Assembly: GCA_018433765.1 (NCBI GenBank) | Contig: JAHDQO010000006.1 | Location: 247,034-311,033, forward strand | Source of the DNA: Tissierellales bacterium | Lineage (GTDB): Bacteria; Bacillota; Clostridia; Tissierellales; Sedimentibacteraceae | Length of the DNA: 64,000 nt | Direction of reading: 5' to 3' | Shown: positions 1,824-57,388 of the stretch, one piece after another | How the letters are laid out: the number at the start of each line of letters is the position of its first letter | How positions within the stretch are numbered: position 1 is the stretch's first letter | Notes under the pieces: model-generated | The model's input: the letters and a program-made list of their open reading frames with translations, nothing else | Database searches by the model: none | What the model was told of the DNA's origin: nothing | Program-made: the position numbers and the translations under genes

Positions 1824-2134
1824 TGAGAATTTTTGATATAAACCAAAATTATTATCCAGAATCAAATTACAATGCACTCTCAGATACTCCTAATAGTTAT
1901 CCTCCTTGCAATCAACCAATAGTTACTGATGATCCAAATTATTTACAAGGATATTTAAATACTATAATTGGCAGTTATATAAAAGTTTCATATCTTCTTG
2001 GAACAAACTTATTTCTAGATAAGCAAGGAATACTTAAGGAAGTTGGTATTGATTATGTTATTTTAGAAGAACCTCAAACTGGAAATCAAATAGTTAGCGA
2101 TATGTATTCAATAAAGTTTGTAGATGTATATTAA
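1824..2134 (+). CDS. Tandem paralog of the preceding small protein (paralog 2)
   Basis: About 65% identical to the 1444-1818 product with the same RBS context (GAGAGGTGA + ATG). The 5' part of the track ORF overlaps paralog 1, so the true start is taken as the ATG at 1824. Confidence 0.4.
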
Positions 2135-2140
2135 GAAAAC

Positions 2141-2176
2141 AGGGTAACCTCTTTTAGGATTACCCTGCTTTTTTAT
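2141..2176. terminator. Rho-independent terminator, probably bidirectional
   Basis: Hairpin cagggtaacctcttttaggattaccctg followed by TTTTTTAT, lying between convergent genes. Confidence 0.6.
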
Positions 2177-2185
2177 AATTTTTTA

Positions 2186-3352
2186 TTATTTTGAAATACC
2201 AGTTTCTTTAGCAGCTTTTTTTACTGCTTCAGCAACTCTTAAAGATACATCTTTATTTAGTGCTTTTGGTATAATACAATCTACTGAAAGTTCTTGTTCT
2301 GATACTGTATTTGCTATTGCGTATGCAGCTGCCATTTTCATTTCTTCGTTTATATCTGACGCTCTTACATCTAAAGCTCCTCTAAATATACCAGGAAATG
2401 CAAGAACATTATTTATTTGATTTGGAAAATCAGATCTTCCTGTACCTACTATATATGCTCCTCCTGCTTTTGCTTCTTCAGGCATTATTTCAGGTGTTGG
2501 ATTTGCCATTGGAAAAACTATCGGTTTCTCACTCATTGAAGCTATCATTTCTTTTGATACTATATTAGGTGCTGACACACCAATAAATATATCTTTGTTT
2601 TTTAATGCGTCTGTTAGTGCTCCAGTCTCATTATATATATTTGTTATTTGTGCCATTTCTTTTTTGCTATTATTTAGCTCTCGATTTTTATTGATTATTC
2701 CTTTTCTATCACAAATCACAATGTTTTTTATTCCCATTTTTAATAATAGTTTAGCTATTGCCATTCCTGCTGCACCTGCACCATTAATTACTGCTTCTAC
2801 TTCTTCTATTCTTTTACCTGCTACTTTTAGAGCATTTATTATTGCTGCTGCAGTTACTACTGCTGTCCCATGCTGATCATCATGAAATATTGGGATATTC
2901 ATTTCTTTTTTTAATCTTTCTTCTATTTCAAAGCATCTTGGTGCAGCAATGTCTTCAAGATTAATACCTCCAAAAACAGGTTCTAATATTTTAACTGTTC
3001 TTACTATTTCATCTACATCTTTTGAATCTATACATATTGGAAAAGCGTCAACATCTCCAAATGTTTTAAACAGCACAGCTTTTCCTTCCATAACAGGAAG
3101 AGCTGCATGTGCACCTATATCTCCTAAGCCTAATACAGCTGTTCCATCTGTTACTACAGCTACCATATTTGATTTTGAAGTATATTCATATACCTTATTT
3201 ATATCTTTATGAATTTCTCTACACGGCTGAGCAACACCTGGAGTGTAAGCTATTGATAAATCATCCTTAGTTTCTACTTTCACTTTACTTTTTACTTCTA
3301 TTTTTCCTTTATATTTTTTGTGCATTTCTAAAGCAAGTTTGTTGTAATCCAT
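2186..3352 (-). CDS. Malic enzyme family protein, probably a CitM-type soluble oxaloacetate decarboxylase
   Basis: Malic enzyme N-terminal and NAD-binding domains are present. Start is taken at MDYNKL, which has the RBS GGAGGAA. Last gene of the citrate lyase operon, as citM is in Lactococcus and Enterococcus. Confidence 0.8.
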   Translation of the reverse strand: MDYNKLALEMHKKYKGKIEVKSKVKVETKDDLSIAYTPGVAQPCREIHKDINKVYEYTSKSNMVAVVTDGTAVLGLGDIGAHAALPVMEGKAVLFKTFGDVDAFPICIDSKDVDEIVRTVKILEPVFGGINLEDIAAPRCFEIEERLKKEMNIPIFHDDQHGTAVVTAAAIINALKVAGKRIEEVEAVINGAGAAGMAIAKLLLKMGIKNIVICDRKGIINKNRELNNSKKEMAQITNIYNETGALTDALKNKDIFIGVSAPNIVSKEMIASMSEKPIVFPMANPTPEIMPEEAKAGGAYIVGTGRSDFPNQINNVLAFPGIFRGALDVRASDINEEMKMAAAYAIANTVSEQELSVDCIIPKALNKDVSLRVAEAVKKAAKETGISK

Positions 3353-16992: not shown

Positions 16993-17009
16993 TATTATTC
17001 TTCTCCTCA

Positions 17010-17118
17010 TCTCTCAAAGTATTCTTTGCTGGAATTAGCACCTTGCAGAATTTCTGTAGGTTGCCGAAGTTTCATAGGGCCAGTCCCTCCACCTCTCTGG
17101 ATAAGAAGTACATTATTC
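17010..17118 (-). promoter_or_regulatory. SAM-I (S-box) riboswitch controlling metY-metA
   Basis: The minus strand reads cttcttatccagagaggtggagggactggccctatgaaacttcggcaacc...gtgctaattccagcaaaga, matching the S-box consensus. It sits in the metY leader. Confidence 0.85.
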
Positions 17119-31777: not shown

Positions 31778-32389
31778 TTATTTATGAAGTATAGGTGATA
31801 GTTTTTTATATAATAATACGGTAATAGTTGATACTACAATTCCTTTAAATAAATTAAAAGGTACTACTGCAAATAATATAAGTGTTTTTAAGTCTACAAC
31901 AGCTTTATTTAAAACATTACCTGCATCAATAAATACTTGTAATGGAGCACCGTAAACCTTTGCATATAATGGAATTAAAACATAGTAATTAGCTATTGCT
32001 CCTACTATTGCCATTAGTATAGTACCTACTATTAAACCTATTACAGCACTTTTAAACGTCTTATTCTTATGATATATAACTGCTGCTGGAAATACAAAAG
32101 AACATCCTATAATAAAGTTTGCTGCTTCACCTACTCCCCCTGTTATAGTTCCGTTTAATGCTAGATTTAATAATATTTTTACAAATTCTATAGCTATACT
32201 AGCCACAGGACCTATTGCAAAACCTCCTAATAGTACAGCAACTTCACTAAAGTCCAATTCATAAAAATGAGGTGCAAACCACAGCGGGAACTCTAGCAAC
32301 ATTAAAACTCCTGCTGCACCTGCTAAAACTCCAATTTTTGTTAATTGTTTTGTTGTTCCTCTACTTAATTTGTTTGTTTTTTGTGACAA
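31778..32389 (-). CDS. ribU: ECF transporter S component, probably the riboflavin transporter RibU
   Basis: About 200-aa, 5-6 transmembrane ECF-S-like protein lying immediately downstream of an FMN riboswitch. Confidence 0.65.
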   Translation of the reverse strand: MSQKTNKLSRGTTKQLTKIGVLAGAAGVLMLLEFPLWFAPHFYELDFSEVAVLLGGFAIGPVASIAIEFVKILLNLALNGTITGGVGEAANFIIGCSFVFPAAVIYHKNKTFKSAVIGLIVGTILMAIVGAIANYYVLIPLYAKVYGAPLQVFIDAGNVLNKAVVDLKTLILFAVVPFNLFKGIVVSTITVLLYKKLSPILHK

Positions 32390-32508
32390 CTTGAAACCTC
32401 CCTTTAATGTGACAACACAAATTAATTAATTCAGTTGATTTTTTATAAAATAAAAAACCCCTGAATTCTCCAGAGGCTGTATTACGAATGGAATAATATA
32501 TTTTATTA

Positions 32509-32620
32509 TCATCCTCTCCCATCCAGACTTTACTGTCGGTACCGGAATTTCACCGGTTCAGCCATTAAGGCTCGCGGACTTTACCGCCGGTAGGGAATTT
32601 CACCCTGCCCTGAAGATATT
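32509..32620 (-). promoter_or_regulatory. FMN riboswitch (RFN element) with terminator hairpin at about 32452-32480
   Basis: The minus strand reads cttcagggcagggtgaaattccctaccggcggtaaagtccgcgagcc...ggtgaaattccggtaccgacagtaaagtctggatgggagagg, which matches the RFN consensus. Confidence 0.85.
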
Positions 32621-32683
32621 TTATAACATTATAACATCTCTATTTAGTTTGTCAAGGTTAAAAATTTAACAAAACTATAAAGA

Positions 32684-41475: not shown

Positions 41476-41624
41476 AATTATAATTAAAAAGAGACCACTT
41501 TTTCAGGGTCTCTATAAAAAAATCAAAATTTAAAATTTATAATAATGAATTGTTAATTAAAAAGCCTGAAGAATAATTCTTCAGGCAATATAACAAAATC
41601 ACAAAAAAATCTTTGATTTTAAAC

Positions 41625-41725
41625 TTCTTTCATCCAGACTCTACTGTCGGCTCTGGAATTACACCAGATCAACCTTTCGGCTAGCGGGCTTTACCGCCGG
41701 TCGGGAATTACACCCTGCCCTGAAG
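41625..41725 (-). promoter_or_regulatory. FMN riboswitch (RFN element) of the rib operon; terminator at 41562-41588
   Basis: The minus strand reads cttcagggcagggtgtaattcccgaccggcggtaaagcccgctagcc...ggtgtaattccagagccgacagtagagtctggatgaaag, followed by the hairpin gcctgaagaattattcttcaggc and a U-run. Confidence 0.85.
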
Positions 41726-41825
41726 TTATACAATATTCATTTTTCATCACTTTATCATATTACAATAAACCTGTCAAGTATATTAGAATTTATTTTCTCA
41801 TAAAAATAAAAGTAAAAACTAGAAA

Positions 41826-42155
41826 TTAACTTTTTATCATCAAATATTTATTTCTAGCATCTTTTACTGCCGCAATTATTGCTTTTTGAGCCATTCCATG
41901 ATATCTTTCTTTTACTTCCAATTCTAATTCTTCTATTTCAGATTCAATATTGTATCCAACTACTATAGTATTAATAAAATCTGATGTTTTTTCTTTTACC
42001 ATATTTGAAGTTGAATCTACTATGATATTTGTTTGTTTGTCTATTATTAAGCCAATAAAAAATATCTCATGAGTTGAAAGTATTGGATCAGTTTTTCCTA
42101 ATCTTGATGTTCCTAAAACATAAACTGTATTTTTAGAGTATTGCATTTTTATCAC
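41826..42155 (-). CDS. Hypothetical conserved small protein (109 aa), last gene of the putative RiPP operon
   Basis: ORF 113 nt downstream of the B12-binding radical SAM gene on the same strand. Confidence 0.4.
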   Translation of the reverse strand: MIKMQYSKNTVYVLGTSRLGKTDPILSTHEIFFIGLIIDKQTNIIVDSTSNMVKEKTSDFINTIVVGYNIESEIEELELEVKERYHGMAQKAIIAAVKDARNKYLMIKS

Positions 42156-42268
42156 CTATTTGTATTTAATTCTACATATTATGATAGTTTATAGCTATTT
42201 TTAAGTCAATAGAATTAATTCAATTTCTACGAAATAAAAGCATACTAGAATAGAAAACAAATAATTTT

Positions 42269-44080
42269 TTATACATAATTTTCCAAAGAATCTACCTTAA
42301 GTATTATTACATCAGTATCTTTTCTTATAAATTTTATTATAGTTTCCTCATATTTTTCAATGATGTTATCTTTTTTCACATCATAAACATTATATTTATA
42401 ATTATTTATATTTTGAGGTTTATTTGAATTATATAAAAAATTCATAGTATCATATTCAAATTTACACATTTCTTTTATAAAATTATTTTTATCACCAAAA
42501 TAACTTTTATTAACAAAATTATAAAAACTCTTATATGCATTTATTAACTTATTGGCTCCTATGGTAGTATCTTGGTAAGATGATATTTTCAATGTTTTTT
42601 CTTCAACTTCTTTATAACTATAGAACAATTGAAGTATATTATCATCATAGAATTCCATTAAAAACTTGTACGTACATCTAAAAGGGTGAAGCGTTCTTAA
42701 ATAAATGTAAGAAACAAATTTATCTAGAAAATTAACTTTATCAAGTAATTCAGATTTGTATTCAAAGAAATGTGTAAAAATTTCTTTATTGTTTTTAACC
42801 ATGTCTATAATATCATGTGGTAAATTATTCGTATAAGTAGCAGTTTCATTATTATACTCAGAATATGATAGTTTATCATAATACACATTTGTTAATTCTG
42901 TTCCTGCATAGAAGCATAATTTATGTAAATAAACTCTACTAATTAATATACTATGTTTTTTTGCCAGTATGTTAATCATAGAAATGGTTTGAAGTATATC
43001 ATTTTCTGTTTCTTGAGGAAACCCATAAATAAATGATAATCTTGGGTATACCTTATATTTGAATAATATATCAATTACATTATAAATATCTGCAATATCT
43101 AGATTCTTATTTATTATTTTCTGCATTCTTGGAGAACCTGTTTCAACACCTAAAAATATGCTTCTGCATCCTGTCTCTGACATTTTTTTTATTAATTTTT
43201 CATCTAGTGAATCTATTCTTGCACTGCATGTCCATTTGATGTTTAGGTTGTTTTTTTGCAAATTATTGCACATATCCATAATATATTGTCTGTTTGCTGT
43301 AAACATATCGTGTATAAAGTTAAAATTATTTACTCCATAATCATTTTTTAATCTCTTTATTTCTTCTACTGTTCTCTCTATAGATTTCATTCTGAAATTT
43401 CTTTTCCAAAAAGTCTTAGTTGAACAAAATGTACAGCTGTAGGGGCAGCCTCTACCTGTTTCTAATACAGCTTCTTTAACTTGTGACATATCTACTAAAG
43501 AATAGTCAATTTGAGGTAATTTATCTAAATCATTTATTAATTTTGGAAGACCATTATTAATAACTTGATTATCTTTTCTATAAGCTAATCCTTCTGTAGT
43601 ATCAAAATTATTATTATTTATAATATTGTGTAAAATAGTTTTTACTGTATCTTCTCCCTCACCTAACCCAACATAATCTATCCATGGAAATGTTCTTAAT
43701 GTATCCGTTGCTGTAAGGGTTGCATGAGGACCTCCAAAAACGATTTTCATGTTTGGACATTTTTCTTTTAATTTCTTAGCCAATATAACTGCAATATGAT
43801 AGATATTACACATGGTATAAAAAATAGCCACATCAACGTGTTTTTTTAAAATGAATTTACTCATATTGTCAATGTTTATATTAAAATTATTATAATATTT
43901 AAAATTACCTTTTTTACATTCATATCCAAAATCTATTATCTTTGTATCATATTCTTTGTGTTTATTTAATAAACTTACTAAAGACAATATTCCAAGAGGA
44001 GTACGATCATAACTAATTTCATGATCTATTATATTTATAAAAAATATAGATTTCATATTAGTTTTTCTCCTTAATATCAT
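42269..44080 (-). CDS. B12-binding domain radical SAM protein (class B) with a ~250-aa C-terminal extension
   Basis: N-terminal B12-binding-like region followed by the CxxxCxxC motif (CPYSCTFCS). The start may be the internal MKSIFF. Confidence 0.8.
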   Translation of the reverse strand: MILRRKTNMKSIFFINIIDHEISYDRTPLGILSLVSLLNKHKEYDTKIIDFGYECKKGNFKYYNNFNINIDNMSKFILKKHVDVAIFYTMCNIYHIAVILAKKLKEKCPNMKIVFGGPHATLTATDTLRTFPWIDYVGLGEGEDTVKTILHNIINNNNFDTTEGLAYRKDNQVINNGLPKLINDLDKLPQIDYSLVDMSQVKEAVLETGRGCPYSCTFCSTKTFWKRNFRMKSIERTVEEIKRLKNDYGVNNFNFIHDMFTANRQYIMDMCNNLQKNNLNIKWTCSARIDSLDEKLIKKMSETGCRSIFLGVETGSPRMQKIINKNLDIADIYNVIDILFKYKVYPRLSFIYGFPQETENDILQTISMINILAKKHSILISRVYLHKLCFYAGTELTNVYYDKLSYSEYNNETATYTNNLPHDIIDMVKNNKEIFTHFFEYKSELLDKVNFLDKFVSYIYLRTLHPFRCTYKFLMEFYDDNILQLFYSYKEVEEKTLKISSYQDTTIGANKLINAYKSFYNFVNKSYFGDKNNFIKEMCKFEYDTMNFLYNSNKPQNINNYKYNVYDVKKDNIIEKYEETIIKFIRKDTDVIILKVDSLENYV

Positions 44081-44228
44081 TTGTAAAATTATAATACATA
44101 CAATAATTTTATTTATTTTATATAGAAATAATATTTATATTAAGGGTAGTGCTTTTTTAATTATTTTAGTAAATACTGATTGCTTTACGTTATTTATTTT
44201 TATATTATGTAATAAATATTTATATTTA

Positions 44229-44378
44229 TTACATACCACCTCTCATGCAAGGATCACATACCCAATATGAATTTACATCTTGCATAGTTTCTGTTTGATT
44301 TAAATGTTCAACTATGCCTTTAATATTTTCTAAAGAAACTTCTGAAGTTAATGTGTTATTTACTTTTTCTATACTCAA
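44229..44378 (-). CDS. Putative RiPP precursor peptide A1 (49 aa; not in the ORF track; TTG start)
   Basis: AGGAGGTG RBS 6 nt before the TTG. Sequence MSIEKVNNTLTSEVSLENIKGIVEHLNQTETMQDVNSYWVCDPCMRGGM. A paralog lies at 46063-46212. The gene sits between the two radical SAM genes. Confidence 0.6.
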   Translation of the reverse strand: MSIEKVNNTLTSEVSLENIKGIVEHLNQTETMQDVNSYWVCDPCMRGGM

Positions 44379-44423
44379 AATTAACACCTCCTTTATCTAA
44401 TTCACTACCCTTAATTTACTAAT

Positions 44424-45815
44424 TTATAAATTATATAGTGGTAGATATCTGAGTGTATTTTTATCATAAAGAGATTCTCCTATTATATTTCTAAGCTTAT
44501 CCGGAGCATTTTTACATAAACTTCCATAAATAGCTACTGTAAGTTCTATACTTGATTTTCTCAATTTACATAAAGCATCATTTGATTTAACAATATTACC
44601 TGAATATATGTAATTTTCATGTATACATCCTCCTAGGCAAATTCTTTTAGCCCAGCATTCATTGCAGTAAGATAAATCTTTATTGTAATGTATAGGATTT
44701 AAAGATTTTATATCATTTATATTTCCTACTATAAAATTATCATCTCCACAAAACCTATGACATGCATACATATCACCGTTTGTATCAATTGTAAACTTAT
44801 CATTTATAGGACAAAAATTATCTGAACGTATGTCAGGATACAAAGACGCGAAACTCCTCAAGAATGGCGGAAGTTGTATAGATTCATTTTGTTTAACTGA
44901 ATTTATGTAATATGTACAAATGTCTTTATAAACATTTATTAATTCATCTACATCATTCTCATTATTAAAGCCTACTTCCTCATCTGCTACAATAGCTGTA
45001 GTAAGATCTAAGTCATTATTATTGCAGTATTTATAAAAATCAAAATAATCTTTTACAGTTTCTTTGGTAATAGTATTCTTAAATGTTGAAATTGATTTGA
45101 GATCACTGTACATTTTTACCTTGTCCATTATTAAATCAAAGGTAGGTTTATTATCCATAGTTACTCTGTTTTTATCATGAATTTCTTTATTACCATCTAC
45201 ACTTGTCATGATATATATATTGTTTTGCTTTATAATTTCCATTATCCTATCATTGTATAAAGAACCGTTAGTTGTAATTGAAAATACAGCCAAATTATTC
45301 CAGTTATTTTGTTTAATGTAATTTATTGCATATTCAATTAAATCTACTTTTAATAGAGGTTCTCCTCCAAAAAAACTTATTGTTTTTTTATCATTATCAT
45401 TATCTAAAAATAATAAATCTATTGCCTTTTTTATAATTTCTTTACTCATGTCTTTTTTCTTTTTATTTTTTTCAAAACAATAATTACAGTTAAAATTACA
45501 TCTATTTGTTAACATCAACGTTAGTGCTTCACAATTTTTATCTGTAACTACATTGAAATTTTCATTACTTTCTTTATTATGAGAACTAATTATCTTATTA
45601 TCTATTAGTATATTTAATGCTTCAATTGCTTTGTCTATTGATGTCTTGTCATATTTATTAGTTAACAATACTTTTATTTCTTTAATGCTGTTTCCCTCAT
45701 TATATTTATTCAAAACATCATATGTAAGAATATTTAAACTAAATACAAAAGAAGTTTTAAAATCATATGCAAAAACATCTCCGCAAAAATTAAAAAAAAC
45801 CATAAATTTGTCCAT
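44424..45815 (-). CDS. Radical SAM/SPASM-domain peptide maturase with an N-terminal RRE-like region
   Basis: CNFNCNYC radical SAM motif. C-terminal SPASM cysteines CxxCxxxxxCxxxC (CNECWAKRICLGGC) plus auxiliary Cys residues. About 100 aa precede the rSAM core. Confidence 0.85.
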   Translation of the reverse strand: MDKFMVFFNFCGDVFAYDFKTSFVFSLNILTYDVLNKYNEGNSIKEIKVLLTNKYDKTSIDKAIEALNILIDNKIISSHNKESNENFNVVTDKNCEALTLMLTNRCNFNCNYCFEKNKKKKDMSKEIIKKAIDLLFLDNDNDKKTISFFGGEPLLKVDLIEYAINYIKQNNWNNLAVFSITTNGSLYNDRIMEIIKQNNIYIMTSVDGNKEIHDKNRVTMDNKPTFDLIMDKVKMYSDLKSISTFKNTITKETVKDYFDFYKYCNNNDLDLTTAIVADEEVGFNNENDVDELINVYKDICTYYINSVKQNESIQLPPFLRSFASLYPDIRSDNFCPINDKFTIDTNGDMYACHRFCGDDNFIVGNINDIKSLNPIHYNKDLSYCNECWAKRICLGGCIHENYIYSGNIVKSNDALCKLRKSSIELTVAIYGSLCKNAPDKLRNIIGESLYDKNTLRYLPLYNL

Positions 45816-45879
45816 TTATTATCCTCTTTTCCTATCCACTTTTTGTTATATATTATTATATTATATGTACATCATAGTT

Positions 45880-45965
45880 TTTATTATATTTTAATAAGCT
45901 TACTAAAGACAATTTTCCAAAGGGAGTGTGTTATATATTACATAATTTTGTTTATTTCACATTTA
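45880..45965 (-). pseudogene. Remnant of the 5' end of a B12-binding radical SAM gene (duplicate of about 43965-44025)
   Basis: Nucleotide similarity: gcttactaaagacaattttccaaagggagtgtg here against cttactaaagacaatattccaagaggagtacg in the intact gene. Confidence 0.4.
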
Positions 45966-46062
45966 AATAGTTATATATTAAGGGTAGTGTTTTTTATTAT
46001 TTTAAAAAATGTTTATTCCTTTAAATAAATTATTTATATTTGTAATAAAATACTTATATCTT

Positions 46063-46212
46063 TTAGTGTGGTGCTACACCACAAGGATCACATATATAAT
46101 ATGAATTTACATCTTGCATAGTTTCAGATTGATTTAAATGTTCAGCTAGTCCTTTAATTTCGTTTAAAGAAGCTTTAGAAGTTAATGTATTGTTAACTTT
46201 TTCTATACTCAA
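46063..46212 (-). CDS. Putative RiPP precursor peptide A2 (49 aa; not in the ORF track; TTG start)
   Basis: AGGAGGTG RBS. Sequence MSIEKVNNTLTSKASLNEIKGLAEHLNQSETMQDVNSYYICDPCGVAPH. Leader about 80% identical to A1, with a divergent core. Confidence 0.55.
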   Translation of the reverse strand: MSIEKVNNTLTSKASLNEIKGLAEHLNQSETMQDVNSYYICDPCGVAPH

Positions 46213-46214
46213 AT

Positions 46215-46470
46215 TTAGCACCTCCTTTGTCTAATATCACTACCCCTAATTTCCTAATTTATAGATTATGTAGCGGTAGATATCTAAGCGTATTCTTATC
46301 AAATTTATATATATGTATCCTCCAAGACAAATTCTTTTAGATAAGTATTCATTTAAATAATATAAATCTTTAATACAACGTATTGTGTTTAAAAATTGTA
46401 TATTATTTATACTATTTACTTTAAATTAAGATTGTTTAAGCTAATACAAAATAAGTTTTCAAAATCATAT
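46215..46470 (-). pseudogene. Degenerate remnant of a second radical SAM/SPASM maturase gene (3' and 5' ends retained, interior deleted)
   Basis: 46215-46330 aligns to the 3' end of the maturase gene (44395-44700) with a deletion. 46400-46470 aligns to its 5' end (45740-45815). Confidence 0.5.
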
Positions 46471-46750
46471 GCAAAAATATCTCCACAATTGTAATAAAAT
46501 ATAGTTTATACATTATTATACTATTTTATATGAATATTTTGTAATAATATGTTTTATTTTGTAATATTTTATTATTTATTACATTATAGTGTATTATTAT
46601 ATCAATGTCAAATTTTTGTTTATATTAATTTAAATGTAATTTTATTGAATTTTATTGTAAAACAAAAAAATAATGACATTCAAGGATAAATACTCTTAAA
46701 TGTCATTATTGATATAACTTTAATTTAAGTAATTTTAAAGAATAATTTTT

Positions 46751-55780: not shown

Positions 55781-57388
55781 TTATACAAGTGGTTCATATT
55801 CTTTCATTATAGCTTCTGCTGCTTTTAGACCATCAATAGCAGATGACATTATACCTCCTGCATAGCCCGCACCTTCTCCACAAGGATATAATCCTTTAAT
55901 ACTACTCTCCATATCCTCATTTCTCACTATCCTTAACGGTGATGAACTTCTTGTTTCAACTCCTGTTAATACTGCATCCTTTCTATTAAAACCATTTATT
56001 TTATTACTAAAAGCATTAACACCTTCAATAATACCTTCAATTACATATTTAGGTAAGCATTTTCTTAAATCACCAAAAGTTGTTCCTGGTCTATATGTAG
56101 GATATATATCACCATAAGTTGTTGAAACTCTATTATTTACTAAATCCTCAAAAAGCTGTACAGGTGCTTTAAAATCTCCTCCACCGATATCAAAAGCTTT
56201 TCTTTCCCATTTTCTCTGATATTGGATTCCAGCTAAAGGATGTCTTGTAGGAAAATCTTCAGGTCTTACAGCCACTAAAATCGCACTATTAGCATTTTCT
56301 AAATCTCTTGCATAAAAACTCATCCCATTAGTCGTTATACCCCCCTGTTCAGAAGAAGATGCAGTAACCATTCCACCGGGACACATGCAAAATGTGTAAA
56401 CTGGTCTGCCATTTTTAGCTTTATATGTAAGTTTATAGTCAGCAGCTTTTAATTTATAATTTCCTGCCATACTTCCATACTGTACTTCATCAATCATTTT
56501 TTGATGGTGTTCTATTCTAACACCTATTGCAAATGGCTTTTGCTGCATATATACATAATTACATAGCATTGCAAATGTATCTCTAGAACTATGACCTATT
56601 GCAAAAACAGCTACATCAGTATCCAAGAAATCCTTTTCAGTAATCAACCTAACAAGTTTACTGTCTTTCACTCCTAAATCAGTTACTTTTTCTTGAAATC
56701 TAAAAGTACCATTTAAACTTATAATCTTTTTTCTAATATTAATAATTACATTTCTTAAAACATCTGTTCCAACGTGAGGTTTATTCAAATACAAAATTTC
56801 ATCTGGAGCACCTGCTTCCACAAACTCTTCTAAAATTTTTCTACCTCTTCTATTTTTATCTTTTATAAGCGTATTAAGTTTTCCGTCGGAGAAAGTTCCT
56901 GCCCCTCCTTCACCAAATTGAACATTTGATTCTTCATCTAAAACACCTTCTAACCAGAACTTATCAATATCTTTGATTCTATCTTCTACTCTTTTTCCTC
57001 GTTCAATTATGATAGGATTATAACCATTTTCAGCAAGTATCAACGCACAAAAAAGACCTGTAGGACCACTTCCTACTATAACTGGTCTATTTTTTAGTGT
57101 TTTTGTTCCTGTAGCTTTTACTTGATACTTATATGGTTTTACAAAGAAAATTTGATTATTTCTGCTAATACATTTTTGATTTCTAGATATCCATTTTTCC
57201 TTTTGAGTAAGTACATCTACTGTGTAAACATACATAATACTATCTTTTTTTCTAGCATCAATAGATCTTCTATGAATTATAATCTCATCTACCTGTTCCT
57301 CGTTTAATTTAAGTATAGATAACACTTTTTGTTTTAAATCTTTTTCTTTATGATCTATAGGTAGTTTTATTTGCTGTATTCTTATCAT
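55781..57388 (-). CDS. FAD-dependent oxidoreductase (COG2509-type NAD(FAD)-utilizing dehydrogenase)
   Basis: GSGPTGLFCAL dinucleotide-binding motif in a ~535-aa conserved family. Confidence 0.7.
   Translation of the reverse strand: MIRIQQIKLPIDHKEKDLKQKVLSILKLNEEQVDEIIIHRRSIDARKKDSIMYVYTVDVLTQKEKWISRNQKCISRNNQIFFVKPYKYQVKATGTKTLKNRPVIVGSGPTGLFCALILAENGYNPIIIERGKRVEDRIKDIDKFWLEGVLDEESNVQFGEGGAGTFSDGKLNTLIKDKNRRGRKILEEFVEAGAPDEILYLNKPHVGTDVLRNVIINIRKKIISLNGTFRFQEKVTDLGVKDSKLVRLITEKDFLDTDVAVFAIGHSSRDTFAMLCNYVYMQQKPFAIGVRIEHHQKMIDEVQYGSMAGNYKLKAADYKLTYKAKNGRPVYTFCMCPGGMVTASSSEQGGITTNGMSFYARDLENANSAILVAVRPEDFPTRHPLAGIQYQRKWERKAFDIGGGDFKAPVQLFEDLVNNRVSTTYGDIYPTYRPGTTFGDLRKCLPKYVIEGIIEGVNAFSNKINGFNRKDAVLTGVETRSSSPLRIVRNEDMESSIKGLYPCGEGAGYAGGIMSSAIDGLKAAEAIMKEYEPLV

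Follow-up and report, generated by a model that had tools for sequence, protein, structure and literature searches.

In the thermocellin system CteA/CteB (SCIFF family, Clostridium thermocellum), a short Cys-bearing precursor is encoded beside its maturase, which consists of an RRE, a radical SAM (rSAM) core and a SPASM domain with two auxiliary clusters, and no dedicated exporter or protease accompanies them. SCIFF precursors contain six Cys (six-Cys-in-45), the acceptor used by CteB is Thr C-gamma, and SCIFF loci carry no B12-rSAM. PapB (freyrasin, PapA/PapB, Paenibacillus polymyxa) and QhpD, which acts on QhpC, form a bond between the sulfur of Cys and the C-beta or C-gamma atom of Asp or Glu. 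The precursor PapA has six CX3D/E motifs, and PapB accepts Cys-Xn-Asp with n = 0-6 (PMC9413430). Among RiPP-tailoring class-B rSAMs, ApyD (aminopyruvatide, Burkholderia thailandensis) is a Tyr beta-C-methyltransferase that makes beta-methyl-Tyr beside an Asp, as described in PMC11117315, where B12-rSAMs are also described as performing non-methyl chemistry. Clostridia and Tissierellia further contain clusters of the form [2-4 peptides]-MFS-B12 rSAM-M16 peptidase-190 aa protein (Caloranaerobacter azorensis CP048617, L008), for which we found no reported function. Their precursors are Cys-free, with ..[DE]G[SK]N and a beta-strand-like core, and an MFS exporter and M16 protease are present without a CteB-like SPASM enzyme.

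In the window (the whole stretch of 64,000 nucleotides that was analysed), a minus-strand cluster holds two 49-aa precursor ORFs, a 463-aa rSAM/SPASM gene and a 595-aa B12-binding rSAM gene. It is very probably a genuine RiPP cluster. We moderately favour a fuller reading that includes the thioether and B12-rSAM mechanism, in which a Sedimentibacter-like (Tissierellia) anaerobe inherits the cluster chromosomally and the cluster is functional. We classify the locus as a genuine RiPP cluster of the ranthipeptide-like sort, an orphan that includes a B12-rSAM for tailoring, and we infer its chemistry.

Comparison with described systems

The locus shares with CteA/CteB the maturase architecture, the short Cys-bearing precursor and the missing exporter and protease. 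However, its maturase is 26% identical to CteB and scored 177.7 bits against the SCIFF-maturase cutoff of 425 (TIGR03974), and its precursors carry two Cys, bear no similarity to SCIFF peptides and lack Thr in their invariant block. PapB and QhpD were the first and second curated HMM matches of the maturase, and the peptides place an invariant Asp between two Cys. Unlike these systems, the scores fell below the family cutoffs (PapB, NF047865, 221.5 bits against 340; QhpD, TIGR03906, 179 against 453), each peptide has a single C-D-P-C (CX3[DE] occurs in none of five), no Qhp dehydrogenase genes lie nearby, and a ring here would match neither system in size or direction. Sactipeptides, by comparison, carry a thioether from Cys S to C-alpha and are made by sactisynthases of the AlbA/ThnB/RumMC type; with the maturase here, the RumMC profile reached 114.7 bits (cutoff 720), and the SkfB match was weak.

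The nearest curated family of the B12 enzyme was ApyD (NF050148; 294 bits against 750, residues 29-505 aligned), and the peptides likewise have an invariant Tyr near an Asp. However, the two proteins do not align in their C-terminal regions, the locus lacks the apy partners MNIO, P450 and SAM methyltransferase, and phylum and precursor differ. Because every curated family cutoff was missed, no function is transferable by equivalog rules. The closest relatives of the B12 enzyme over its full length (40-48% identity) come from the Caloranaerobacter-type clusters, which also place it beside multiple short precursor genes; the nearest have Cys-free peptides as partners with MFS and M16 genes alongside, both of which are absent here. 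Since all relatives at 46-48% identity adjoin short peptide genes, the lineage appears to be peptide-modifying.

Gene content and genomic setting

The two small ORFs lie exactly where the sequence-only reading had placed them on the minus strand, with AGGAGGTG located 6-7 nt 5' of the TTG in each (Table 1). The same 49-aa genes were independently called in public assemblies, A1 in L001, L002 and L095. The cluster reaches upstream to a predicted promoter, the sole 12/12 consensus match in the region, and thus beyond the limits given earlier. The block is flanked by a HAD gene and the rib-operon FMN riboswitch, in agreement with the placement previously claimed, and its neighbours (prfB, secA, tex, HAD and rib) form housekeeping surroundings. 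Neighbourhood annotation revealed no gene for a protease, an exporter or immunity, either within the cluster or around it. A RiPP-type cluster had been proposed, and this proposal held: the precursor genes are real and under selection, and short genes with a conserved leader and variable core adjoin modifying enzymes. The term "canonical architecture" was an overstatement, as protease and exporter are missing and each enzyme belongs to a lineage usually found with other partners.

Table 1. Positions of cluster features and adjoining elements in the window
Feature	Positions	Strand	Basis or remarks
Precursor peptide A1, 49 aa, MSIEKVNNTLTSKASLNEIKGLAEHLNQSETMQDVNSYYICDPCGVAPH	46063..46212	-	TTG start, AGGAGGTG RBS
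Precursor peptide A2, 49 aa, MSIEKVNNTLTSEVSLENIKGIVEHLNQTETMQDVNSYWVCDPCMRGGM	44229..44378	-	TTG start, AGGAGGTG RBS
Radical SAM/SPASM peptide maturase, 463 aa	44424..45815	-	PF04055, PF13353; CteB-like
B12-binding (class B) radical SAM enzyme, 595 aa	42269..44056	-	PF02310, PF04055
DUF3870 protein, 106 aa	41826..42146	-	PF12986, E 1.6e-27
Scar of second SPASM copy	46262..46502	-	Direct repeats D2, D3, D5; blastn self-matches; tblastn
Scar of second B12-rSAM copy, codons 19-41 remnant	45859..45927	-	Direct repeat D4, 78%; tblastn
Inverted repeat around A1, 5' arm UUAGGGGUAGUG	46238..46249	-	I11
Inverted repeat around A1, 3' arm CACUACCCUUAA	45978..45989	-	I11
Inverted repeat around A2, 5' arm UUAAGGGUAGUG	44403..44414	-	I10
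Inverted repeat around A2, 3' arm CACUACCCUUAA	44140..44151	-	I10
Sigma-70-type promoter, TTGACA-17 nt-TATAAT (12/12)	46583..46611	-	Consensus scan; predicted, upstream of whole cluster

Two pseudogene scars show that a tandem [SPASM-peptide-B12] duplication took place. The SPASM scar retains remnants of codons 6-30, 361-403 and 450-463, with internal deletions, three SPASM cysteines gone and no ORF, and was matched by the SPASM protein in tblastn at E 2e-11, 1e-7 and 4e-6. The B12 scar was matched at 65% identity over 23 aa (E 4e-6). Each peptide cistron is enclosed by a conserved 13-bp inverted repeat. The scars, the inverted repeats and the perfect sigma-70 promoter were absent from the sequence-only reading.

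The DUF3870 gene had been regarded as the end of the operon; it is probably a backbone neighbour and not a cluster member. It has its own promoter-like site (42209-42181) and evolves like the backbone. In a related locus (L003), three unrelated genes separate it from the B12 gene, and amino acid identities to that locus are 91% for DUF3870 and 90% for HAD, against 80-84% for SPASM and B12. The proposal of an acquired island was not supported. Of all 4.35-kb stretches in the window the block is indeed the richest in AT (GC 23.3% vs 28.6%, 0.5 percentile), but acquisition is weakly founded because GC3 does not differ between cluster and flanking genes and because the locus has been inherited together with the backbone: lineages separated by dS ~0.5 carry it at the same chromosomal position, and its dS is no higher than that of the backbone.

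Precursor peptides and modifying enzymes

The peptides were compared using five intact copies from four related, diverged loci. All five have an RBS and TTG start, with no stops or frameshifts. Leader dN/dS was 0.10-0.39, revealing purifying selection, and the synonymous-biased substitutions establish the coding conservation whose lack had been named as grounds to reject the small ORFs. The described similarity of the leaders was likewise reproduced (residues 1-38 ~80% identical, CDPC invariant). The block NSY[YW]xCDPC is invariant in five of five copies, and the 5-residue tail after CDPC is hypervariable. Relative to the orthologues in L002, dN/dS was 0.19 for A1 and 0.36 for the leader of A2, and residues 39-49 of A2 accumulated 9.8 non-synonymous vs 1.2 synonymous changes. 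The peptides matched no Pfam or NCBIfam model, and no relatives were detected among 5.8 billion proteins, in a set of 1.84 billion representative ones or in scans of JGI metagenomes, in keeping with the suggestion of a new precursor family. The family, limited to one narrow clade, is real and previously undescribed, yet of a well-known general kind.

The maturase comprises a predicted RRE (~residues 1-75), an rSAM core whose CX3CX2C spans residues 106-113, and a SPASM domain bearing seven auxiliary Cys. C106/C110/C113 and C335, 352, 384, 387, 393, 397 and 416, including CX2CX5CX3C, are invariant in a 33-sequence alignment, which bears out the CxxxCxxC motif and auxiliary cysteines noted earlier; the Pfam SPASM model PF13186 gave no match at E<0.1, though the motif is present. 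An N-terminal RRE had also been suspected, and the AF2 model (mean pLDDT 85.8) predicts a beta3-alpha3 RRE-type domain in the ~75 first residues, in which three strands followed by three helices span residues 5-72 (pLDDT 85-96); these residues align to the CteB N-terminal domain. CteB (5wgg) was the best PDB match by sequence (residues 8-427, E 6e-44, all Fe-S cysteines kept) and by fold (Foldseek TM 0.78-0.86). Sequence and model together indicate a homologue of CteB/PapB-type ranthisynthases and a predicted ranthipeptide maturase, consistent with the expected RRE-bearing rSAM/SPASM enzyme of the thioether (CteB/PapB/QhpD) clade beside a class-B rSAM. Its nearest relatives (33-35% identity) adjoin genes for Cys-rich peptides, no relatives above 35% were found outside its own clade, and dN/dS was 0.15-0.17 (purifying selection).

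The B12 enzyme contains a Rossmann B12 domain, an rSAM core and a helical C-terminal domain (~residues 400-595). Its assignment to class B agrees with PF02310 (40.2 bits, cutoff 32.1) and PF04055 (86.4 bits), by which cobalamin binding is predicted. A start at 44080 was set aside, and 44056 is most likely (595 aa, good RBS). The AF2 model (pLDDT 91.3) matched the folds of AprD4, MgmA, OxsB, CysS, TokK and TsrM in Foldseek. AprD4, the top fold match, is an atypical class-B member. The gene is under purifying selection (dN/dS 0.10-0.21).

Proposed chemistry and competing explanations

Besides the genes, their selection, domain architecture, fold, cofactor motifs and rarity of the family, all of which the analysis shows, we infer leader-RRE recognition, thioether formation, methylation, the residues involved, the step order, leader removal, export and biological role. 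The strong promoter would drive two paralogous 49-aa precursors, whose conserved N-terminal ~30-37 residues would act as a leader docking on the RRE of the CteB-like SPASM enzyme. This enzyme would take H from a side-chain carbon within the invariant Y-[Y/W]-x-C-D-P-C block, and the carbon would then bond to the sulfur of a Cys bound by an auxiliary Fe-S cluster, closing a small thioether ring of the non-alpha type. If PapB and QhpD are a guide, the likeliest link would connect C-beta of Asp42 with Cys41 or Cys44; the tolerance of PapB for Cys-Xn-Asp (n = 0-6) provides a chemical precedent for a C-D ring. The B12-rSAM would methylate an unactivated carbon after or before ring closure, which by analogy with ApyD could be C-beta of the invariant Tyr38. 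The 5-residue tail would be free to vary and could diversify among strains.

This thioether-plus-methyl chemistry specifically is a tentative assignment that falls slightly short of an even chance. We counted in favour of a thioether that the three best curated matches of the maturase (PapB, QhpD and the SCIFF maturase) all make Cys-to-side-chain thioethers, and against it that SPASM enzymes of similar fold also yield C-C or cyclopropyl products (TigE, 8vpo, ranks 12th). The CxxC, with one Asp and two Cys on offer, could merely be a disulfide or metal site. A bolder form, on the doubtful side of possible, is that the CDPC peptides are a new RiPP family in which an enzyme of the CteB/PapB clade closes an exceptionally tight thioether (Cys-Asp adjacent or Asp-Pro-Cys) or forms another, unprecedented linkage, a B12-rSAM of the Cys-free-peptide lineage has been recruited to the adjacent aromatic, and the 13-bp repeat is a possible mRNA device. 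If true, a methylated, thioether-bridged Y-[Y/W]-x-C-D-P-C with a variable tail would be a scaffold new among characterised RiPPs, and the repeat could act in mRNA processing or stability, setting the precursor:enzyme ratio.

A RiPP with other chemistry is an improbable but substantial competitor. The SPASM enzyme would form a C-C or C-O cross-link on Tyr38 or Tyr/Trp39 (cyclophane- or streptide-like), or the B12-rSAM would be non-methylating (cyclisation, cyclopropanation or C-S bond), with CDPC as a disulfide or metal ligand. The invariant Y-[Y/W] directly ahead of CDPC and the chemical diversity of B12-rSAMs suit such a product, as does a same-lineage B12-rSAM in L093, which is fused to a SPASM domain of another type and adjoins a peptide with a Cys-free core (..GKAVYIAFKWP). 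TigE, ChlB and SuiB occur among the maturase fold matches, and the cyclophane-forming YhhB and GrrM among its weaker NCBIfam matches, but the latter are confined to the rSAM core, whereas the thioether formers PapB, QhpD, SCIFF maturase and CteB are far ahead of the rest in both sequence and structure. All five copies retain both Cys, and the Cys-rich partners of the closest SPASM relatives also speak against this alternative. Somewhat less probable still is a modified peptide that is not exported, either staying intracellular (SCIFF-like) or, in the manner of QhpC or mycofactocin precursors, giving rise to a cofactor or a protein subunit. The absence of a transporter, leader protease and immunity gene nearby, the housekeeping neighbourhood, the vertical inheritance at a fixed chromosomal site and the rank of QhpD and the SCIFF maturase are in line with it. 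However, the locus encodes neither a partner dehydrogenase nor another client protein, the family is restricted to one narrow clade, and a hypervariable tail, a non-synonymous excess and a duplicated, diversified precursor are usual for secreted peptides with bioactive or signalling roles and unusual for cofactors.

Signs of decay were counted against the functional thioether-forming cluster: one SPASM and one B12 copy are scarred, that is, two of the four original enzyme genes, and in L003 the SPASM gene lacks its first 74 codons, which are the RRE-coding part, and the peptide RBS is weakened. Together with the missing accessory genes and the extremely narrow distribution, they could point to a decaying relic whose product is no longer made. 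We consider this quite unlikely: the remaining enzymes and five peptide genes stayed intact across dS ~0.5 at dN/dS 0.10-0.39, the consensus promoter and strong RBSs were kept, and losing one redundant enzyme pair is expected after tandem duplication and is no sign of lost function. Hardly probable at all is that the small ORFs are untranslated and owe their conservation to an RNA structure or a regulatory element lying between the enzyme genes. The conserved 13-bp long-range stem around each ORF and ~300-nt segments that fold better than shuffles (z -3.8 and -3.0) fit this idea, but no Rfam family matched, the interior helices are little conserved and the bracket stem shows no compensatory change, whereas the synonymous-biased leaders, the five uninterrupted copies and a canonical RBS at correct spacing argue for translated peptides.

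Precursor peptides and their genetic setting

The best-supported reading of the locus is a functional, narrow-range RiPP cluster, in which two 49-aa precursor peptides (A1 and A2) accompany a radical SAM/SPASM enzyme and a B12-binding radical SAM enzyme. Both peptide starts lie 6-7 nt downstream of AGGAGGTG. The small-ORF coordinates, ribosome-binding sites, start codons, leader identity and CDPC motif described in the sequence-only reading were all correct when the sequence was re-read. For the B12 enzyme, the start codon with the better ribosome-binding site is the ATG at 44056, and 595 aa is also the length in public gene calls.

Features of the cluster and its borders in the window
Feature	Position	Strand	Remark
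Predicted sigma-70 promoter	46611-46583	minus	TTGACA-17-TATAAT, perfect consensus match
ORF-free stretch, ~240 nt			between promoter and A1 in minus-strand order
Scar of second SPASM gene	46262-46502		codons 6-30, 361-403, 450-463; self-comparison
Inverted-repeat arms around A1	46238-46249 / 45978-45989
A1, 49-aa ORF	46063-46212	minus	TTG start
Scar of second B12 radical SAM gene	45859-45927		codons 19-41; self-comparison
SPASM enzyme, 463-aa radical SAM gene	44424-45815	minus
Inverted-repeat arms around A2	44403-44414 / 44140-44151
A2, 49-aa ORF	44229-44378	minus	TTG start
B12-binding radical SAM gene, 595 aa	42269-44056	minus
DUF3870 gene, 106 aa	41826-42146	minus
FMN riboswitch heading rib operon	41618-41731	minus	116 bits

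Four further assemblies were reached via the exact SPASM protein, peptide homologues and a B12 radical SAM cluster member. Locus L001 is identical to the window and L095 is 99.7% identical, both with the peptides of the window, and L002 (94% versus the window) encodes peptides ending in ..YYICDPCGVAPH and ..YYECDPCHEACM, and L003 (85%) a single peptide ending in ..YYICDPCSLGPH. All five distinct peptide copies (5/5) are intact, and the leader (residues 1-38) has a pairwise dN/dS of 0.10-0.39, which bears out the conservation of the small ORFs as coding sequence. The stretch T31-MQDVNSY-[Y/W]-x-CDPC is unchanged across the copies and the last five residues are hypervariable; the C-terminal block of the A2 orthologues (residues 39-49) accumulated 9.8 non-synonymous versus 1.2 synonymous changes. 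Such a pattern marks a RiPP precursor that is translated, in which the region for recognition and modification is constrained and the tail diversifies. The L002, L003 and L095 loci come from runs with adjacent accession numbers (ERR14940450, ERR14940446 and ERR14940451, respectively), and three diverged versions in such runs suggest that similar samples contain co-existing strains or species that are related but differ in their peptide tails.

No peptide relatives beyond the same clade were found by a word-indexed search of 5.8 billion proteins, no credible ones by an HMM profile against 1.84 billion representatives, and none in JGI metagenomes using leader patterns and a degenerate core DNA pattern, in agreement with the earlier suggestion that the CDPC peptides form a new family. 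Four extra profile matches, to long repetitive proteins in many short stretches, were judged spurious.

A 12-13-nt inverted repeat, UUAAGGGUAGUG ... CACUACCCUUAA (= TTAAGGGTAGTG / CACTACCCTTAA), brackets each peptide cistron, its two arms being separated by 238-251 nt. Four copies of the motif are at the bracket sites and a fifth match, with one mismatch, is at 55925-55936, against a chance expectation of 0.37 in the 64-kb window. L002 and L003 both keep the motif unchanged amid variable flanks. For both cassettes the repeat closes the predicted fold, minimum-energy as well as centroid (z -3.8 and -3.0), and its stem is kept in a five-sequence consensus fold, in which the sole change (A to G) preserves a G-U pair and no compensatory change was found. 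The repeat could plausibly act in processing or stabilising the mRNA of the precursor cistron; alternatively, it may be a paired protein-binding site.

The two radical SAM enzymes and their relatives

Pfam domains Radical_SAM and Fer4_12 were detected in the SPASM enzyme, and its NCBIfam matches were ranked as PapB (221.5 bits, cutoff 340), QhpD (179), SCIFF maturase (177.7) and nif11 maturase (173), each below its own cutoff. The best solved-structure match was CteB (5wgg, E 6e-44), over residues 8-427 with the N-terminal domain included. The AlphaFold model (pLDDT 85.8) matched CteB with a TM of 0.78-0.86 over ~450 columns, followed by anSME, TigE, ChlB and SuiB. Residues 5-72 of this model form three strands and then three helices, the topology of a RiPP recognition element (RRE), and together with the span of the CteB alignment this supports the proposed N-terminal RRE. 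The CxxxCxxC motif and auxiliary cysteines were likewise confirmed, as C106, C110, C113 and seven more cysteines, including CX2CX5CX3C, are invariant in a 33-sequence alignment.

Among 5.8 billion proteins, the closest ones outside the clade of the SPASM enzyme are 33-35% identical; the clusters that hold them, one type with YcaO and the other with S41 peptidase and ABC genes, encode other Cys-rich peptides beside them. No relatives were found in 185,579 species genomes. On these searches, the precursor family and the SPASM lineage are new and extremely rare. The nearest SPASM relatives are carried by two other orphan clusters (L004-L006 / L007): the first encodes YcaO, a second radical SAM enzyme and a 74-aa peptide (..GGGGACYILKCFWPKCAPKPEVCPL..), and the second two S41 peptidases, an ABC transporter and a 65-aa peptide (..INCEEYFECSHPNCPRIYPG..).

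Both the B12-binding and the Radical_SAM domains of the B12 enzyme scored above Pfam cutoffs, consistent with its original assignment. Its best curated match was ApyD (294 bits, cutoff 750), and BchE, PhpK, HpnJ and the RiPP C-methyltransferase subfamily scored far lower. The model (pLDDT 91.3) matched the cobalamin radical SAM folds of AprD4, MgmA, OxsB, CysS, TokK and TsrM; the last ~200 residues of the model are largely helical, and no clear beta3-alpha3 unit of an RRE was found there.

In contrast to the SPASM enzyme, the B12 enzyme belongs to a large lineage (>1,600 matches at E<1e-20). Relatives at 40-48% identity occur in Caloranaerobacter azorensis, a Haloimpatiens plasmid and metagenomes, and their clusters encode 2-4 Cys-free peptides (..DDGSLVMDEGSNLKIVISVET and similar), an MFS transporter, an M16 peptidase and a 190-aa protein. 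The location of relatives beside short peptides, and the SPASM domain of the fused B12-SPASM protein P0170, only 22% identical to the SPASM enzyme of the window, point to a peptide-modifying lineage and to an independent recruitment of the SPASM and B12 pairing in the window; a co-evolved pair was rejected on the same 22% identity.

The closest B12 relatives are in L008 (Caloranaerobacter azorensis CP048617, 2417025-2432800), L009, L011, L012 and L094. The precursors of the L008 type are Cys-free and end in ..[DE]G[SK]N plus ~9 alternating hydrophobic residues; the clusters have one or two B12 radical SAM enzymes, and the 190-aa protein has a helix-turn-helix-like stretch. These loci are apparently an uncharacterised RiPP-like cluster type. 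Locus L093 (2071-5088) encodes a 1005-aa natural fusion of a B12 radical SAM and a SPASM radical SAM enzyme, adjoining a 36-aa peptide (..SEGKAVYIAFKWP) and an MFS transporter.

Proposed chemistry and alternative readings

Leader peptide, RRE, radical SAM/SPASM cross-linker and radical SAM tailoring enzyme constitute textbook general logic. All chemistry of the product is inferred. No match reached its curated cutoff, members of both enzyme superfamilies catalyse varied chemistry, and alternative cross-link chemistry was considered. The SPASM enzyme, of the CteB/PapB clade, would bind the leader through its RRE and install a non-alpha thioether inside Y-[Y/W]-x-C-D-P-C. Asp42 would be the most precedented acceptor in view of the residues used by QhpD, which targets Asp/Glu, and by PapB. 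The latter accepts Cys-Xn-Asp with n = 0-6 (PMC9413430). The B12 enzyme may C-methylate the peptide, possibly at Tyr38, by analogy with ApyD, whose product is (2S,3R)-beta-methyltyrosine within a GYLYD motif (PMC11117315).

Three further, less likely readings were weighed. The cassettes as a non-coding element would accommodate the folded repeats, and the constrained leader argues for translation. The cluster as a decaying relic was considered beside L003, a single unit whose SPASM gene (2082-3257) has lost its RRE-encoding first 74 codons and whose peptide has a weakened ribosome-binding site (GGAAGGTG); this gene could represent either a leader-independent enzyme or recent decay. The truncated gene still has a dN/dS of 0.15, and both cluster enzymes have 0.10-0.21. 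An intracellular or cofactor-like role was also considered; no protease or exporter gene is encoded near the cluster, and the tails of the peptides diversify.

No characterised thioether RiPP pairing a CteB-like maturase with a B12 radical SAM enzyme was found in the literature that was searched. If the product of the cluster is made, it would represent a new precursor family among radical SAM thioether peptides, probably with a new ring topology, and the first functional handle on the large uncharacterised B12 radical SAM lineage of Clostridia. Two enzymes and two substrates are a minimal design that is easily reconstituted and convenient for enzymology and peptide engineering, the more so as natural variants exist: peptides with three different tails and, in one lineage, an enzyme that lacks the RRE. 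The cluster opens no long-standing question. Orphan radical SAM RiPP clusters are common and found by the thousand; one survey counted 3,421 sacti/ranthipeptide BGCs (PMC10288494).

Locus history and surroundings

Pseudogene scars of both enzymes, with three SPASM cysteines mutated in codons 361-403 of the SPASM scar, show that an ancestor carried a tandem duplication of the SPASM-peptide-B12 unit. One enzyme pair was then deleted, leaving two diverged precursors and one enzyme pair for both. The dS to L003 is 0.49-0.51 for the cluster enzymes and 0.70-0.76 for the backbone HAD and DUF3870 genes; since the former does not exceed the latter, the cluster has been inherited together with its chromosome site since the split from L003-type lineages.

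The sequence-only reading had proposed an AT-rich acquired island. The AT-richness stood, as the cluster block (GC 23.3% versus 28.6%) is the most AT-rich 4.35 kb in the window, but composition gave no support for acquisition, GC3 of the cluster genes (0.16-0.17) being equal to that of the flanking genes (0.12-0.20). Foreign origin from low GC was rejected, as amino-acid composition and AT-rich spacers, not GC3, explain the low GC. An empty-site comparison used the closest species genomes, those of Sedimentibacter saalensis and of a Tissierellia MAG (Tex 73-75% identical); both keep Tex-HAD followed by a crotonase/bcd/etf operon, and synteny is already broken there.

Upstream of the cluster are genes for a PpaX-like HAD hydrolase, Tex, SecA and RF-2. 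The DUF3870 gene, previously taken as the end of the operon, is probably a neighbour rather than a cluster member, as it has a promoter-like site of its own and shows backbone-like conservation (91% amino-acid identity, versus 80-84% for the cluster enzymes); in L003, moreover, three unrelated genes intervene between it and the B12 gene, and an extra gene comes after it. No PDB relative of DUF3870 was found, it was not seen adjoining Tex in 80 other genomes, and a literature search gave nothing informative on its function. A second FMN riboswitch (32507-32621, minus strand) precedes an ECF-transporter S component gene (31778-32389), probably for riboflavin uptake, and a SAM riboswitch is located at 17004-17107 on the minus strand of the same window.
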